A stretch of 64,000 bases of DNA from positions 1-64,000 of the forward strand of contig BTVV01000004.1 in assembly GCA_045863855.1 (NCBI GenBank), written 5' to 3'. The position numbers and the translations under genes were made by a program. Below the pieces are notes generated by a model. It was not told where the DNA came from. It saw only the letters and a program-made list of their open reading frames with translations, and did no database searches. This document shows positions 6,795-25,384 of the stretch, in pieces; the first letter of the stretch is position 1, and every line of letters starts with the position of its first letter. This DNA is from Planctomycetota bacterium. Lineage in GTDB: Bacteria > Planctomycetota > SZUA-567 > H5-PLA8.

Positions 6795-8375
6795 ATGGAA
6801 CTCCTCGAACGCATCCTGCACGGCTTTCTGCTCTTCGTTGCCGCGATGGCCCTTCTCAAGCTGGGTTTCGCGATTCTCGTCGCCTTCATGGCCGTCCTTT
6901 TTAAGCCGTCCCTGATCGGCAGCGTGCTGGCGGACTTGCGATGCATCCGAGAACGCGACCCGGCGGTGGAAGGTTGGATCGCGGCGCTCTTCTATCCCGG
7001 TTGGTGGGCGCTGGCGCTGCATAAGCTGATCGCGCATCCGCTGTACCGCATCGGCTTGCGCACGCCCGCGCGGCTGGCCAACTTCGGCGCGCGTTTCCTG
7101 ACCGGCACGGATATTCATCCCGGCGCGCAATTGGGCCAAGCGATCTTCATCGACCATGCGCACGGCGTCGTGATCGGTGAAACGGCGATCGTGGGCGACG
7201 GCGTCACCGTCCTCCATCAGGTCACTTTGGGCGGCACCGGCAAGGAACACGGCAAGCGCCATCCCACGGTGGAGGACGGAGTTCTGCTCAGCGCCGGATC
7301 CAAGGTGCTGGGCAATATCGTCATCGGCGCCGATGCCAAAATCGGCGCCGGCAGCGTCGTCGTAAAAGCCGTACCCGCCGAATCCACGGTCGTCGGCATC
7401 CCGGGGCGCATCGTCGCCACCGGCGGCAAGCGCCTCCCCGCCAAATCGCTCGACCAGACCGACCTGCCCGATCCGATCGTCGAACGCCTCGTGGCGCTGC
7501 AAGACGAACTCCGCGAATGGGAGCGCAAAGTGGAAGAAAAGAAGTCCAGCGGCGCGCGCTGGCCGAAGGCCGGTGAAGACGTGCTCGCCGAGATCGTGAC
7601 GCATAAGCATGCCGAAGTGGCCGAAGCGCGCGCGCGCGCGCCGCTTCCCGAACTGCGCAGTCAGCCCGGAGTGCGCGGTTCGCCGCGCGGCTTCGCCGCC
7701 GCTCTGCGCGGGCCGGGACTGCGGCTCATCGCAGAAATCAAGAAAGCCAGCCCTTCGGGCGGACTGCTGCGCGAAGACTTCGATCCGCAGGTCATCGCGC
7801 GCATCTACCAGGACGCGCACGCCTCGGCCCTCTCGGTGCTCACCGACCGAAAGTACTTCCAGGGCTCGCTCGAGTACCTGGCCCAGGTCCGCGCCGCCGT
7901 GGGCCTGCCGCTCTTGCGCAAAGATTTCGTGATCGACGAATACCAGATCGTCGAAGCCGCGCGCGCCGGCGCCGACGCGGTCCTGCTCATCGCCGCCTGC
8001 CTCGACGACGCCCAACTCAAGGGCTTCCGCGAAGCCGCCTCCGCCGAAGGGCTCGACGCGCTCGTCGAAGTCCACGACGAGGCCGAACTGGTCCGCGCGC
8101 TCCAGAGCGGCGCCGAGATCCTGGGCATCAACAATCGCAACCTCAAGACCCTCGAAACGAAACTCGAGACGACTTACAGGCTCGTCCGCGAACTCCCCTC
8201 CGACCGCAACGGGCTGCTCGTCGTCAGCGAGTCGGGGATCAAGACCGCCGAGGACACGCACCGCCTCATCGAAGCGGGGGTCAACGCCGTACTCATCGGC
8301 GAAACCTTCATGCGCGCGCCAGACATCGGCTCGAAGGTTCGCGAGATCATGGGGCATGGGGAGTACGCGATCTGA
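6795..8375 (+). CDS. cysE-trpC: Serine O-acetyltransferase / indole-3-glycerol-phosphate synthase fusion (CysE-TrpC)
   Basis: CysE motifs RERDPA, DIHPGA, FIDHAHGVVIGET, GKRHPT and hexapeptide repeats. From about 7575, TrpC motifs EIKKASPS, SVLTD, LRKDF, LVEVH, GINNRNL, SESG. One uninterrupted frame. Confidence 0.92.
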   Translation: MELLERILHGFLLFVAAMALLKLGFAILVAFMAVLFKPSLIGSVLADLRCIRERDPAVEGWIAALFYPGWWALALHKLIAHPLYRIGLRTPARLANFGARFLTGTDIHPGAQLGQAIFIDHAHGVVIGETAIVGDGVTVLHQVTLGGTGKEHGKRHPTVEDGVLLSAGSKVLGNIVIGADAKIGAGSVVVKAVPAESTVVGIPGRIVATGGKRLPAKSLDQTDLPDPIVERLVALQDELREWERKVEEKKSSGARWPKAGEDVLAEIVTHKHAEVAEARARAPLPELRSQPGVRGSPRGFAAALRGPGLRLIAEIKKASPSGGLLREDFDPQVIARIYQDAHASALSVLTDRKYFQGSLEYLAQVRAAVGLPLLRKDFVIDEYQIVEAARAGADAVLLIAACLDDAQLKGFREAASAEGLDALVEVHDEAELVRALQSGAEILGINNRNLKTLETKLETTYRLVRELPSDRNGLLVVSESGIKTAEDTHRLIEAGVNAVLIGETFMRAPDIGSKVREIMGHGEYAI

Positions 8376-10556: not shown

Positions 10557-10829
10557 CTACTGCTGCTTGGCTTTAACCACTTCGGCGATATTCGCCACAG
10601 TGCGGAATTTCTTGAGGCTGAACTCTTCGTCTTCCAGTGCGATCCCGAAAACTTCTTCCAGCCCGATCACGATTTCCATCAACTGCACCGACTCGAGCCC
10701 CCACTTCTCCATCAGGTCGTCCGTGTCGCCGATATCCGCAGGCTGCGCCTTAAGCATCAAGCGGTCTACGATCATGATTTTGAGCTGAACTTCCAGGCTG
10801 TCGTCGGCCACGAGATGCTCCTTAAGCAT
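10557..10829 (-). CDS. Acyl/peptidyl carrier protein
   Basis: Acidic 90-aa protein with GLESVQLMEIVIGLEEVFGI (phosphopantetheine Ser motif) and FRTVANI. Confidence 0.85.
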   Translation of the reverse strand: MLKEHLVADDSLEVQLKIMIVDRLMLKAQPADIGDTDDLMEKWGLESVQLMEIVIGLEEVFGIALEDEEFSLKKFRTVANIAEVVKAKQQ

Positions 10830-11008
10830 GGCGGTTCATGCGGCTTACCAGGGAACCGTTTCAGACCGGCGTTCGTCAGGGAGTCGCCTCATTCGTATAA
10901 ACCGAGATTGTAACGTGAGCTACTGCAAAGCCGCCACGGCCAAGGGAAGGGCCAAAGGGGGTGACCACAAAAAGTTCTCCGCGAGCCCGGTAATGACCAG
11001 GACAGTGC

Positions 11009-11036
11009 TTGACAGAAAACGAGCATCTTATAGTTT
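11009..11036 (+). promoter_or_regulatory. Sigma70-type promoter for mglA
   Basis: Consensus TTGACA (11009-11014), 16 nt, TAGTTT. Confidence 0.5.
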
Positions 11037-11099
11037 GCCCTATGTGCACTACTCCATTTTAAAGACCTGCGGACCGGTCGAAAGCGACTAGGATGACTC

Positions 11100-12308
11100 A
11101 TGGTCCAAATCAATTTCGCGACGCGTGAGGTCAACTGCAAGATTGTGTTCTACGGTCCCGGCCGATGCGGGAAGACCACGAACTTGCAAGTCGTCCACGC
11201 CAAAGCGCCGCCGAACAGCACCGGCGACTTGGTCTCCATCGCCACGGAGACCGACCGCACGCTGTACTTCGACTTTTTGCCGCTCGATTTGGGCCAAGTC
11301 GCGGGCATGCGGACCAAGTTCTCGCTCTATACGGTCCCCGGCCAGGTGTACTACGACGCCACGCGCAAGCTGGTGTTGCAGGGCGCCGACGGGATCGTAT
11401 TCGTGGCCGACTCCAATCCAGACATGATGGAAGAGAATATCGAATCGCTGAACAACCTGGCCGTGAACCTGCGCGAGAACGGGCTGGACATCAACGAGTT
11501 GCCGGTGGTGCTGCAGTTCAACAAGCGCGACCTTGAGAATCCCGTACCTATCGAGGAAATGAACGCGAAGCTAAACCGCGCCAACTGGCCCGCCGTACCG
11601 GCCGTGGCAGTGAACGGCGACGGGGTGTTCCAGACGCTTAAGGCGATCTCCCAGTTCGTGATCAAGAAGTTGAATCGCGAACAGGGTTATTCGGAAGACG
11701 GCAGTCGCCGCGGCGGCGGTGCAGCCCGGCCTTCGGCGAAGTCGGCCGCCGCACCGCCTCCGCCTCCGCCCCCGCCGCCGGGTGCAAAGGCTCCCCCGCC
11801 GCCCCCCAAGCCCGCTGCTGCACCGCCGCCGCCCAGCCCTAAGGCGCCGACTCCACAGCCGCAGCCGGCCGCAAAGCCCGCGACGCCCGCATCCGCCGCG
11901 TCGCTGCCCAAGCCTAAATTTCCGACTCCGGCCCCTCAGCCGGTGGTGCTGCCTAAAAAGGATCCGCCATCCGGTGCGGTGCTTCCCAAGCCTCAGGCTC
12001 CAGCCGCCGCTTCGGTGCCGGCGCCGGAAGTCGCCAACGAGCCCGAAGCGGCGGTCGAGGCACCGCCCACACCGGCACCGGCTTCCGCCCCGGCTCTTAA
12101 CCCGGTGGCCGCCGAGATCGCCAAACGCAAGCGGGCCGAAGAAGAAGCGCGCCGAAACGCACCTGCCGAAGAGCCCGTAGAGGCCGCCCCACCGGCGGCG
12201 CCGGCCGGCGGAGGGGGTTCGAAAACCGTCGTCATCGTCTTGGCCGTGCTGGCTTTGGCGGGAGTGGCCGCCGCTTTGTTCTTTGTCTTTAAAGGGAGTG
12301 GGTCCTGA
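11100..12308 (+). CDS. mglA: MglA-family small GTPase with Pro-rich extension and C-terminal TM helix
   Basis: REVNCKIVFYGPGRCGKTTNL, TETDRTLYFDFLP, YTVPGQ, NKRD closely follow Myxococcus MglA. Residues ~200-402 are a Pro/Ala linker plus TVVIVLAVLALAGVAAALFFVF. Confidence 0.92.
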   Translation: MVQINFATREVNCKIVFYGPGRCGKTTNLQVVHAKAPPNSTGDLVSIATETDRTLYFDFLPLDLGQVAGMRTKFSLYTVPGQVYYDATRKLVLQGADGIVFVADSNPDMMEENIESLNNLAVNLRENGLDINELPVVLQFNKRDLENPVPIEEMNAKLNRANWPAVPAVAVNGDGVFQTLKAISQFVIKKLNREQGYSEDGSRRGGGAARPSAKSAAAPPPPPPPPPGAKAPPPPPKPAAAPPPPSPKAPTPQPQPAAKPATPASAASLPKPKFPTPAPQPVVLPKKDPPSGAVLPKPQAPAAASVPAPEVANEPEAAVEAPPTPAPASAPALNPVAAEIAKRKRAEEEARRNAPAEEPVEAAPPAAPAGGGGSKTVVIVLAVLALAGVAAALFFVFKGSGS

Positions 12309-12312
12309 CCCA

Positions 12313-12341
12313 TGGACCGCGGCGCAAGCAAGCGCTATACT
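12313..12341 (+). promoter_or_regulatory. Internal sigma70-type promoter for mglB
   Basis: TGGACC-17 nt-TATACT. Confidence 0.5.
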
Positions 12342-12405
12342 GCGCCTGCCCGCAGCGAAATGAGTACGCGGAGTCCCGACACACGTGGGGCTTGGGAGGT
12401 TTCCG

Positions 12406-12924
12406 ATGGCGTTTAGCGAAAAAATGCGGCAGGCCCGGCTGGTCTTCTACGAAGAAGATGTAGAGGATATCAATAAGCTCCTGGGCGATTTTCTAGAGCG
12501 TTCCCAAGCCAAGTGCGCGCTCTTGATCGACAAGGAAGGCCACCTCGTCACTAAAAAGGGCTTCACGAAGTCCTTCAATACCGATTCCATTGCCGCCCTC
12601 GTGGCCGGCTCCTTCGCGTCCACGCGCGAAGTCGCTAAGTTGCTGGGCGAGACGGAGTTCTCGGTGCTCTTCCACCAAGGCAAGAACGAAAACATCCACA
12701 TTGGTTTGGTGGCCGAACGCGCGCTGGTCGTGATCATCTTCGACGACCGCACCACGTTGGGCATGGTTCGGTTGTACGCCGAAGAGCTGACGACCAAGCT
12801 TTCCGATACTTTGCTGAAGGCCATCGATAAACATAAAGACAAGAACGACGGGGTCGGCGCCGAGTACGAAAAAGCCGCAGAAAAAGCGCTCGACGACTTC
12901 TTCGGTTCTGACGAAAAGGCCTGA
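12406..12924 (+). CDS. mglB: MglB roadblock/LC7 GTPase-activating protein
   Basis: LVFYEED, LIDKEG, AALVAG, FHQG, IFDDRTTLGMVRL and C-terminal ALDDFF helix as in Myxococcus MglB; GGAGG SD before ATG 12406. Confidence 0.92.
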   Translation: MAFSEKMRQARLVFYEEDVEDINKLLGDFLERSQAKCALLIDKEGHLVTKKGFTKSFNTDSIAALVAGSFASTREVAKLLGETEFSVLFHQGKNENIHIGLVAERALVVIIFDDRTTLGMVRLYAEELTTKLSDTLLKAIDKHKDKNDGVGAEYEKAAEKALDDFFGSDEKA

Positions 12925-13095
12925 TTCGAAGGCTTCAACGGACGATCGTGGCGGGGGCCGGAAGCTCCAGCAGGGAGCCGTGCCCCCAATCTACCTCCCC
13001 TTGCGCATATGCCGACGATATCTTAGTTTGCAGGACCAACGCGGCTAGGGGGTTAGGCGTTACGTTGCCGCGGGTTGCCAGGCGGCGGGTTCAAC

Positions 13096-16000
13096 ATGGG
13101 CTTCCAAGGAAGCGTCGAAAGCTTCAGTCTGGCCGACGTCTTCCAGAACCTTGCCATGAATCAGCAGACTGGCACGCTGCGCATCGTGGCGCCGGACGGT
13201 AAAGAACGGCATATCTTCTTCGACGCCGGCCAAGTCAAAAATCTTTCCCGCGGCACGCAGATTCCCTTGGTTTTGGGCGAGATGCTGGTCGGACGCAGCA
13301 TTTCCAGCCCTGAGCAGGTGGAAGAGGCGCTGGCGGCTCAGAAAGAGCGGCGCAAGCCCCTTGGCGAGTGCATGCTCGAGTTGGGCTTCCTCGACCGCGA
13401 CCGTCTGGAAGCCGTCCTTAAACACCAGATCGGCGAAGAGTTGTACGAGCTCTTCGGGTGGGAAAAGGCGAACTTCGAGTTCACCGAAGGACCGGCCAAT
13501 CCGCAACTTTTCGTGGACCGGGGCCTCGGTAGCCCTTCCTTGCCGATATCCAGTCTGATCATGGAAGCCGCGCGGCGGGTGGACGAAGTCGAACGCCTGC
13601 GCGAGCAGATCCCGTCTTTCAAAGAGATCTACGTCGTCGATAAGGATGTTCGCGAAGCGTTGGAAAGCGGGGCGCTGGAAACGGACGCCATCGAACGCCG
13701 CGTCATCACGCTGGTGGACGGCAAGCGCGACGTGGACGACCTGATCGCCGACTCCTTCCTCTTTCGCTTCGAGGTGCTTTCGACGCTGGCCGGATTCCTG
13801 CAGTCCTCGCTGGTCCGGCCAGCGAAGCTGGAGGAGTTGCAAGCGGCCACGCCCGAACTGCGCGAGGCCGGCGACAAGGGCCGCCTGTGCAAGAACCTCG
13901 AGCGCCGTCTCGCGTTGGGCGACGACACCGGCGACGTGCGCCGCGAATTGGCCGACGTGCTGGCGGCTTCCGAACAGGCCGAAAAAGCCGCCATCCATTA
14001 CAGCGTCCTGGCCGACGGGGAACAGAAGGCCGGCAACGAAGACGGGGCCGTCGATCTGTACCGCAAAATCCTGCAGGTGCTGCCGCACCACCTTCCTTCG
14101 CGCGAACGCCTGGGCACGATCTACGCGCGCCGTGGACAGCTGCGCGAGGCTATGGTGCAGTTCCAGGAAGTGATTCAGGCGCACCAACGCGCTCAAAATT
14201 TCGCCTCGGCCCGCCGCGTGGCTCAGCAAGCTCTCGAAATCGAGCCGACCGCGCATGACATCCGACGCGAACTCGTCCAGATCCTGGTCGACGAAGGAGA
14301 TAAGGCGGCCGCGGCGCGCGAATGCGAGGTGCTGGGCGATATGCTGGCCCGGCAGGGCCAGTCGCGGGAAGCCGCCGAATGCTACCGCCGCGCGATTCAG
14401 GTCATGCCCGGCTTGGCGCACCTGAAGAAGAAACTAGCCAATGTCATGCTCACGCAGGAAGACCGGCGCGCGCGGACGAAGCGCACGCTGATCGTCACCG
14501 TCTCGGTACTGGCCGTCCTGGCGATCGGCGGCGCGCTGGGCCTGCGCGAGTTCAATTTATACACCACGTGGCAGCGCACGCGGGAACAGGTCAAGCTGCT
14601 CCAGGGCACGGCGGCCGAGTTCGAGGCCCAAGAGCGGTTTAAAGACGCCGCCGACAAATACGAAGATGCCATTCGCCGCATCGCATCCAGCGAGATGAAG
14701 GACACGTTCGCCCCCATCACACGGGTCAACGACGAGGCACGCGCGCTGCATAATAAGCTCGAGAACGCGCGCAACGCGGCGGTGCAAAAGCACGACGTCA
14801 TGGCGGCCAGCGAGCAGAAGAACAGCAAGGAAGTGCTCGATCAGGGCCGCGCGCTCTGGAAAGCCGACGATCTATTCGCCGCGATCGCGAAGTTCGACGA
14901 GGTGCTGAGCAACCAGTTCGCTCCCGAGGAAGTGCGCACGGAAGCGGCCGAGTTGAAGGAAAAGACCGAGGCCAAAGCGACCGATTACAAAGCCGGTATC
15001 GCGCGCATGAAGAAACCGCCGCGCGAGTCCTTCAATGGAGTCCAGGAAGAGTACCGCTTCAAGCTGGCCTTCTTCGAGCGCTTCGGCAAGGTGCCCGAGC
15101 TGTCCAAGGAGAAGCTTGAGTTGCCGGTTCTGGTGACCCTCAAGAACGTGGACCGTGTGCTGGTGTACAAGGACGGCACATTCCTGGGGCCGGCGAGCAA
15201 AGGCGCCGAGAATGTCTTTCGCTACGACCGCGCCGAAGCGAAGCGGTTCGAGTTCCGCAAAGAAGGGTACAAGACCGAGTTTCGGCTGGTTCGCGAAATG
15301 GACGTCGAAGCGACGGTCAGCTTGCAGCGCGAGCCGGCCTTCGTGGCGCGTCTGCCGGTGAAGCCTTCGGGCGGCGCCGTCTACGATGGCAAAGACATCT
15401 GGGTCGGCACCGTGGAAGGCGGACTCCTGCAACTCACCCCCGGCCCTAAGGGACTGACCGCCGCATGGGAATTCAAGCTTCCGGGCGGAGGCGGGCTGGA
15501 TAAGGAAGTTTTCGGCAACGTCGTCGTGCAAACCGTAGGCGGCAAGAAGTTGCTGCTCTATTCCACCAAGGCCGGCGACCGCGTCGCGGTGGAACCGGGT
15601 AACGAGAAGCCGGCGCTTTTCGGAAAATCGAAAGACCGCTCGGTGCTGGAGACGCCCGCGCGCATCCAGCATCTACCTTTGGCCGGCGATCAGCTTTTCT
15701 TCCTCATCCCGCGCGACCGGCGCCTGGAAGGCTACCGCGCGGAGCAGGATATTCCGCTCTGGTCACGCGGTAGCGAAGAGTTGCCGAAGGCCATCACCTG
15801 CGGGCCGCTGCTGATTCGCCAGGAAGAACTGCTCGTCGTCGGCTGTGCCGACGGCAATCTGTACGGGTTGTCGCTGCGCGACGGCACGCGCCAGCGCGTA
15901 TGGACCACGCGCGGTCAGGCCATCGCGGGCGGCCCCCTGCTGATTCGAAACCTGCTCGTCGCCTGCGGCCGCGAGGGCAGCGTCTTCTTCTTCGACCTCA

Positions 16001-16386
16001 AGGGCGGCGGGGAGCTGAACACCGAGTCCATCCCCGGCAGCGTATACGCAGATCCGATCGTGCAGCGCCAGATGCTCTTCGTGGGCGCCTCGCTTCCCGA
16101 CGGGTTGTTCGCGATCGATCTGGATACGCAGCGCCTGCGCTTCGCGTACACCGGCGAACAGATCGACGGAGGCATCACGACCACGCCGGCGGTGGTGGGC
16201 GATTTCGTTTACTACGGCACCGAACGCGGCCATTTTTACGCTTTGAAGTACGACGGCCAAGGTTACGAACAGAAATGGGATTACCGTGCTCCCGATGGAG
16301 CGCGCATGGTGTGCAGTCCTGTGGCGATCGGAACGCGTGCCTTTTTCTTTTGCGCCGATGGCCGGGTCTACGTCTTCGACGACTAG
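13096..16386 (+). CDS. DUF4388 (PatA-N) + MshEN-like + TPR + TM + PQQ/BamB-type beta-propeller protein
   Basis: [19 protein letters not shown]...TGTL and [11 protein letters not shown] (DUF4388), TPR helices, [21 protein letters not shown], and PQQ-like repeats ([24 protein letters not shown]). Confidence 0.85.
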
Positions 16387-17051: not shown

Positions 17052-20222
<3,171 letters not shown>

Positions 20223-21138: not shown

Positions 21139-21463
21139 GCGGATCTCCGAGGCATGAGCGCTTCTGCTCCATCAAATTACACGAACGCGCTCCGATTCGG
21201 CAGACTGGATGCCTTGAGAGTCGGGCGCACTTGTGAACCTCATTCCTCTCACCAACCTAAACTCAATGGCCGCAAGGTGCCGCAGTGGAACGTCCTTTCC
21301 GACGCGGGTCGGATAGGAGTCACCGCGAGCCCGCGATGAGCGTCTAAGGATTGCGACGCTTTATCGAGAGATGGCCTGTGTTGCCTTAACCCTTTGTGCG
21401 GGATATGGTTGCAAGGCGCCTGCGCCCATCGAGGCCGATCCGGAAAGGAGGTCCGTGAACGCC

Positions 21464-25384
<3,921 letters not shown>

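Follow-up and report, generated by a model that had tools for sequence, protein, structure and literature searches.

Can a bacterial polarity switch run with its GTPase fixed in the membrane? Models of the MglA switch assume a soluble GTPase that shuttles between the poles through the cytoplasm, which a version anchored by a transmembrane (TM) helix could not do, and the 64,000-nucleotide stretch of planctomycete DNA analysed here (the window) carries an mglA whose predicted product has just such a C-terminal tether and membrane anchor. The gene lies at 11100..12308 (+; 402 aa, ATG to TGA) and is the sole mglA found by tblastn in the genome, G000, which is 93.9% complete and in which one mglB was found as well. 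The anchored MglA/MglB variant, set in a five-gene block, is real, conserved and apparently undescribed. If the anchor is true, the operation of a membrane-bound Ras-like GTPase arose in bacteria without lipidation, and the anchored form would offer a direct way to test whether a polarity switch can operate in two dimensions; the block would be a concrete candidate for what makes cells asymmetric in a phylum where cell biology without FtsZ still lacks an explanation.

The preliminary description of this gene spoke of a canonical MglA G domain, and this is what aa 1-195 (11100..11684, +) turn out to contain. The motifs are intact (G1 as GPGRCGKTT, TETDRTL with the Arg53 finger, YTVPGQ with Gln82, and NKRD), and the best matches among PDB sequences are MglA of M. 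xanthus (E 7.8e-75) and of T. thermophilus (E 3.4e-66), while the AlphaFold model has M. xanthus MglA structures as its top match (6h17/6izw; TMt 0.86-0.87, 58% identity). Residues D52, R53, T54 and Q82 do not vary among the 26 G domains aligned, and YTVPGQ is present in all 117 TM-form rows. The close relatives that carry names are Planctomycetota MAGs; many relatives bear the JGI label 'signal recognition particle receptor subunit beta', which the structure and sequence matches do not support. An intrinsic Arg by the G2 Thr, a TVPGQ G3 motif and an mglB within four genes point to a G domain of the group-1 type. The whole protein would not count as a canonical single-domain member, because its 402 aa exceed the working limit for that group (single domain, <=240 aa).

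Compared with M. xanthus MglA (195-203 aa in the PDB chains), the protein has about 205 extra residues and a predicted TM end. The first part of this tail is a Pro/Ala-rich linker of 180 aa (aa 197-376, 11688..12227, +; 53 Pro, 45 Ala) that includes a run of nine prolines at aa 219-227 (11754..11780, +), both as originally noticed; by its composition and in the AlphaFold model, which was built from a 47-row alignment and has a mean pLDDT of 69.7, it is predicted to be disordered, with no regular structure except two single-residue bridges. A conserved charged helix, also seen at the outset, lies at aa 334-352 (12099..12155, +) and is modelled at 335-352 with pLDDT about 67-85; it opens with an NP-hydrophobic-x-x-E-hydrophobic motif that recurs in 32 of 118 database matches and in 6 of 57 genome loci, all six in the window's class, and relative to the 98% identical locus L001 its codons show 7 synonymous and 0 non-synonymous differences. 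The tail closes with a predicted TM helix at aa 376-397 (12225..12290, +), five residues from the C-terminus, just where the preliminary description had put it. This assignment draws on hydropathy and the model: the segment is uncharged, its best 19-residue Kyte-Doolittle mean is 2.98, and the modelled helix spans residues 375-399. At the N-terminus of the protein neither a hydrophobic stretch nor a signal peptide was found (maximum hydropathy 0.45).

A linker that is GC-rich and of low complexity might suggest that the tail arose from an error of assembly, a frameshift or neutral read-through, yet we find this scarcely conceivable. A contig from DNA run X3 (1562 bases) covers 10900-12449, and so the whole gene, with 0 differences and 0 gaps; a diverged strain present in RNA-library contigs shows one 6-base insertion and one 6-base deletion only, both in the linker; and the layout is kept across 35 families. 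In the comparison with L001, codon differences number 24 synonymous and 0 non-synonymous in the G domain, and 38 and 3, respectively, over the 205 aligned codons of the tail; the tail is under purifying selection. A frameshift origin, which had been named at the outset as one way in which the extension might prove spurious, is refuted by the X3 contig, the 6-base indels, the codon counts and the conservation across families. From the more distant L002 the linker differs by 38 synonymous codons, 43 non-synonymous ones and a number of indels (several), free divergence of the kind expected of what would be a spacer. The RNA-library contigs span mglA in runs X15-X17, although contigs alone say nothing about transcription, strand or level. 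At 10991-10997 RNA-library contigs from two studies start while DNA contigs run on, a weak hint that a transcript 5' end may lie there, about 105 bases upstream of mglA; a promoter scan of 10800-13200 gave a single site, in the gap separating mglA from mglB, where 0.5 would be expected, which is chance level.

Absence from relatives, another way in which the extension might have proved spurious, does not apply either: it is widespread. An MglA match (E<=1e-20, any length) occurs in 221 of 401 phylum genomes and 63 of 101 families; none was found in the other 180 genomes, which include the whole of 12 families with at least five genomes sampled. Open frames of at least 300 aa hold 128 of the 150 listed matches, and there are 191 weaker ones besides, which may include short paralogues. 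In a length-filtered set of the 121 best database proteins (221-704 aa, query included) a hydrophobic tail is present in 107 at a mean hydropathy of >=1.8 and in 111 at >=1.6. Every one of the 17 complete orthologue loci in the class to which the window belongs, its own counted, ends in a hydrophobic tail (1.59-3.62); 8 further loci are cut by contig ends, one is a 26-aa fragment, and a short paralogue (L034, 213 aa) is without such a tail. A further 40 genomes, from 35 families and picked from the best-scoring list, gave 37 TM-like ends, 2 basic amphipathic helices and 1 cut locus, so that 37 of 39 complete loci have the predicted TM form, the usual one among the MglA-bearing Planctomycetota sampled. 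Some genomes hold many copies: G048, G109 and G077 (L037-L065) have 11, 11 and 14 MglA-like matches, many of which carry non-TM extensions and lie in frames of 300-1270 aa.

How would the tail sit in the membrane? Of 71 genome loci considered, 61 were complete, 59 could be parsed and 53 bear a TM helix; in these 53 the number of Lys plus Arg residues averages 3.6 before the helix and 0.6 after it, with more before than after in 48, equal numbers in 5 and fewer in none, the window's own protein having one Lys only on each side. Because basic residues lie ahead of the helix, an N-in topology is predicted, with a cytoplasmic G domain and a tail anchor in the inner membrane. The linkers are 76-350 aa long and the C-terminus lies <=15 residues past the helix in 48 of the 53; as in tail-anchored proteins generally, a lone hydrophobic helix falls in roughly the last 30 residues and, judged by hydropathy, there is no signal peptide. 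The predicted anchor is well supported, being favoured by hydropathy, by the positive-inside bias and by the swap of the TM helix for other membrane-type tails described below.

The GGGG run ahead of the helix, here and in some relatives, raises another reading of the same helix, namely that it is a sorting or processing signal like GlyGly-CTERM and that a released GTPase acts as an ordinary soluble MglA. GlyGly-CTERM and PEP-CTERM proteins combine an N-terminal signal peptide with a basic cluster after the C-terminal TM segment; neither is present here, the basic cluster standing before the helix and not after it, and we reject this assignment. The Gly run is not general across relatives, and Pfam and NCBIfam scans gave no sorting-signal family, so that a processed, soluble product seems highly improbable next to a membrane-anchored one. 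The earlier idea of a permanently tethered GTPase stands, as a prediction, for the TM forms; it does not extend to a few close relatives with tails of the peripheral type.

These relatives bear on what has been selected. Clustering at 50% left 150 best representatives, every one of at least 244 aa, of which 63 have TM-like ends, 33 a basic stretch followed by an amphipathic segment, 53 other ends and one was not parsed. The amphipathic motif, a pattern drawn up after viewing the sequences, occurs in 33 of the 86 non-TM tails as against 0.2 (maximum 2) in shuffles, and in 0.3% of the long frames of the window's genome; a profile search begun from nine amphipathic-tail proteins found 107 new proteins, 101 of them with the motif, a result that is partly circular. 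In trees rooted on one Deinococcus sequence, with no verified M. xanthus row, 116 of 117 TM forms fall into one clade with support 100 (FastTree of G domains, 220 rows), and the TM clade has support 100/99 in IQ-TREE (51 rows). Nested within the latter are amphipathic ends (L066, L067, P0152), Trp/basic ends (P0081, P0113) and polybasic-Phe ends (L038, L039). A single clade of the amphipathic rows, a group defined by tails and not by the tree, was rejected (p-AU 1.1e-5). TM, amphipathic and polybasic anchors thus appear to be interchangeable. Because some membrane-type end recurs, it may be anchoring itself that is the selected trait, and this recurrence is the best indirect evidence for it.

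Several other ends deserve mention. P0404, P0421, P0437, P0245, P0454 and P0491 are long MglAs that end in the basic amphipathic motif, and all six are labelled Chitinivibrionales, Chitinispirillaceae or Fibrobacter; all but P0245 are the five named proteins among the 107 from the profile search. The named Fibrobacterota relatives found here differ from the window's protein in having an amphipathic end, not a TM helix, and fall outside the TM clade. In P0007, P0009-P0013, L019, L024 and others a Lys run and then Gly-Cys stand directly ahead of the hydrophobic helix, and this Cys could be acylated. A subclade of P0123, P0125, P0128, P0135 and P0176 has a mid-protein TM segment followed by 77-194 residues, and these would be bitopic MglAs with a predicted outside domain. 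The end of P0206, P0209, P0238, P0251, P0259 and P0262 is an alternating hydrophobic, beta-strand-like segment and not a helix. In G048 and G109 an mglB-coupled MglA with a polybasic, Phe-containing tail of 61-63 aa accompanies a full five-gene block.

The neighbourhood offers clues to what an anchored MglA might do. An adjacent mglB had been noted, and its frame (12406..12924, +; Roadblock/LC7, 172 aa), which starts 97 bases past the mglA stop, matches PF03259 above cut-off; the acidic C-terminal segment of the protein aligns with the M. xanthus Ct-helix (6izw_B, E 1.2e-27), and the score against the Thermus equivalog NF052242 is 99 bits, below the cut-off of 200. The pair is thus like MglA/MglB of M. 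xanthus and T. thermophilus (5ymx, 6izw, 6h5b, 3t12) in G-domain fold and sequence, in Arg53 and TVPGQ, and in a coupled mglB with a C-terminal acidic segment, but unlike them in its order, mglA then mglB, and in belonging to a five-gene block. The usual block comprises genes for a PATAN-TPR-TM-beta-propeller protein, a TPR-Roadblock protein and a Roadblock protein, then mglA and mglB. In 40 phylum loci, with about 4 kb of upstream sequence in 39 and 0.7-6.6 kb downstream, a TPR-Roadblock gene lies upstream of mglA in all 40 and a small Roadblock gene in 39, mglB follows mglA in 36, a PATAN-TPR-TM-PEGA-beta-propeller gene is adjacent in 33, and all partners occur together in 28. The PATAN gene was not found beside mglA in 7 of the 40, including both loci with amphipathic tails; longer stretches show that in most loci, G048 and G109 among them, the PATAN gene is full-length and its TM segment falls near residue 465. 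The block is split in the window's genome, with the PATAN gene downstream of the pair and contig C168 carrying the two extra Roadblock genes. Elsewhere, L066:292-1752, at an amphipathic-tail MglA locus, encodes a TPR-Roadblock protein with an inserted FHA domain, and the L067 counterpart is similarly long; a PATAN gene was not found next to the mglA of L066 or L067.

The window's PATAN (DUF4388)-TPR-TM-beta-propeller protein (13096..16386, +; 1096 aa, TM at about aa 465-483) has an MshE-related motif over cut-off, and its cytoplasmic part, modelled with pLDDT 91.7, gave generic TPR matches only in a fold search. Two paralogues are present in G000, at C40:24079-27369 and C12:45511-48885. The protein is not an SgmX: it scores 25.7 bits (E 6.8e-6) against an NF052243 cut-off of 1800, and it carries a PATAN domain, a TM segment and a beta-propeller in place of an all-TPR cytoplasmic architecture without TM. 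The weak match covers model positions 108-219, in the N-terminal TPRs, and MglA-GTP binds the C-terminal TPR12-14 of SgmX (PMC7668184). A complex prediction for the G domain (with GTP and Mg) and the 461-aa cytoplasmic PATAN-TPR part, made from 26-row alignments for both partners, scored 0.00 twice, with controls not folded, and is given no weight in either direction.

We favour an MglA/MglB switch that is tethered to the membrane and positions type IV pilus-type motors via the PATAN protein, a proposal to which we would give an even chance as a whole. That the protein is anchored and also works as an active MglA/MglB switch, taken jointly, seems highly probable; that the output is control of pili or polarity, which is argued by analogy, is evenly balanced. 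The C-terminal helix would hold MglA in the inner membrane with its G domain on a flexible cytoplasmic leash, and the linker would let this domain reach partners some distance off. The MglB dimer would act as a GAP and its C-terminal helix would aid nucleotide exchange, as in M. xanthus, where the dimer sets the intrinsic Arg and Gln for hydrolysis and the Ct-helix promotes exchange (PMC6785124, PMC4316618); the two extra Roadblock proteins, again by comparison with M. xanthus, may be MglC-like modulators. Recruitment to the pole by soluble scaffolds such as RomR, which with RomX supplies polar targeting in M. xanthus (PMC3441718, PMC9481161), would be replaced by the anchor, and a pattern might form by lateral diffusion and capture in the membrane, not by cytoplasmic shuttling. 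Output would pass to PilB/PilC-type motors through the neighbouring PATAN-TPR membrane protein. PATAN domains of Synechocystis bind PilB1 and PilC (10.1101/2021.06.11.447907), and the formation or localisation of T4P is under MglA control in Myxococcus, Bdellovibrio and Thermus (PMC7519303).

The genome has the parts for such an output: 7 PilT-family genes above cut-off, secretin-like matches and MreB. It also has flagellins and 11 DUF4388 matches, and therefore outputs besides pili are possible. PilT paralogues, counted to a maximum of 5 per genome, average 4.3 in MglA-positive and 2.6 in MglA-negative genomes (4.4 and 3.3 by family), a difference confounded by kinship and genome size. The mere presence of PilT is uninformative as a co-occurrence test, since it is found in 392 of 401 phylum genomes; these include 171 of the 180 without MglA, and so pili do not need the module.

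It might instead be that the block serves signalling across the envelope, with the periplasmic PEGA/beta-propeller part sensing a surface, a neighbour or a prey cell and MglA relaying the signal to a non-pilus output such as secretion, adhesion or gene control. In most loci the neighbour is a single-pass membrane protein, with PATAN-TPR in the cytoplasm and PEGA/beta-propeller outside; TM Ser/Thr kinases built along similar lines abound in the genome, an FHA domain occurs in one variant TPR-Roadblock protein, and tails of 45-194 aa on the outer side are seen in some relatives of MglA. Yet the anchor ends <=15 residues from the C-terminus in 48 of 53 loci, and therefore MglA itself would sense nothing outside, and the characterised group-1 MglA and PATAN proteins described in PMC7519303 and 10.1101/2021.06.11.447907 act on pili or motility. 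We regard this reading as rather unlikely, the switch for pili being preferred.

The preliminary description had suggested polarity, division or membrane organisation. Polarity or pilus control best fits the neighbourhood, and the failure to find MglA in 180 of the 401 phylum genomes makes division less likely. Some points do favour a role in division: no tubulin/FtsZ match was obtained in G000, where 13 of 14 controls gave one, a membrane could be patterned by a GTPase anchored in it, which would mark the division or budding site or organise invaginations in FtsZ-less cells, and two closed f15-family genomes have 11 MglA-like matches each. Besides the families in which no MglA was found at all, the recurring neighbours include no recognised division gene family, and the main text of a 2026 preprint on phagocytic planctomycetes does not contain 'MglA'; we consider such a role unlikely. 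It is tempting to go further and to imagine that Planctomycetota evolved their own Ras/Rab-like membrane patterning, with a hypervariable tether, interchangeable anchors, a three-Roadblock, Ragulator-like platform and a trans-envelope receptor directing invagination, budding or engulfment and not just pilus placement, but this broader picture seems less likely still.

Ras and Rab, with a hypervariable region and a lipid anchor, and tail-anchored Miro share the order of G domain, flexible variable linker and C-terminal membrane anchor. The likeness is an analogy of layout only, since the window's G domain is of the MglA type with 15-24% identity to Ras/Rho/Arf; and unlike the eukaryotic GTPases the protein has no CAAX box and its TM anchor would not be extractable by a GDI-like factor. 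Closer to the peripheral tails is MinD, whose targeting helix resembles, though not by alignment, the amphipathic ends of L066, L067 and the 33 of 86 non-TM long MglAs. MinD too is a nucleotide switch brought to the membrane by a C-terminal amphipathic helix (PMC8155659), but it belongs to another NTPase class and binds reversibly, depending on dimerisation, whereas the window's protein has a full TM helix.

Long MglAs have been met before. One account, which describes MglA as without any lipidation motif, lists 'MglA2' proteins of 225-327 aa (313 aa in Fibrobacter succinogenes) with a C-terminal part of unknown function (PMC3000849); these share with the window's protein an MglA domain and a C-terminal extension, and the passages concerned propose no membrane anchor. 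The anchored form may have been overlooked because the main comparative survey, by Wuichet and Sogaard-Andersen in 2014, left out proteins >240 aa, 39 of them in the MglA subclade (PMC4316618). Its table gives the 313-aa Fibrobacter protein as group 1, and 'Planctomyc' does not occur in the parts of the text and supplement that were covered; in PMC11135422 planctomycetes are mentioned for GYF/ZnR proteins only, in the parts available. Double mglB coupling, and PATAN genes in the vicinity of some group-1 mglA genes, have already been published (PMC4316618, PMC4719450), as has the definition of MglC as a second Roadblock protein (PMC4719450); loci of the window type differ from these in that the PATAN protein itself crosses the membrane once and bears TPRs and a beta-propeller, that a TPR-Roadblock fusion joins the block, and that the GTPase has its predicted anchor. 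The titles and abstract openings returned from open-access PMC and bioRxiv gave no description of a TM-anchored MglA, and 'tail-anchored' together with 'MglA' returned zero papers there.

Two further features of the window are recorded here. Downstream of the PATAN gene, two genes (17052-20222 and 21371-25384, +) encode Ser/Thr kinases in which the kinase domain is followed by a Pro-rich linker and a hydrophobic segment; the layout is that of the MglA tail, and it is possible that these kinases were its source. Upstream, a 526-aa frame (6795-8375, +) joins a hexapeptide-repeat transferase, which we take to resemble serine acetyltransferase, to an indole-3-glycerol phosphate synthase, an unusual fusion.
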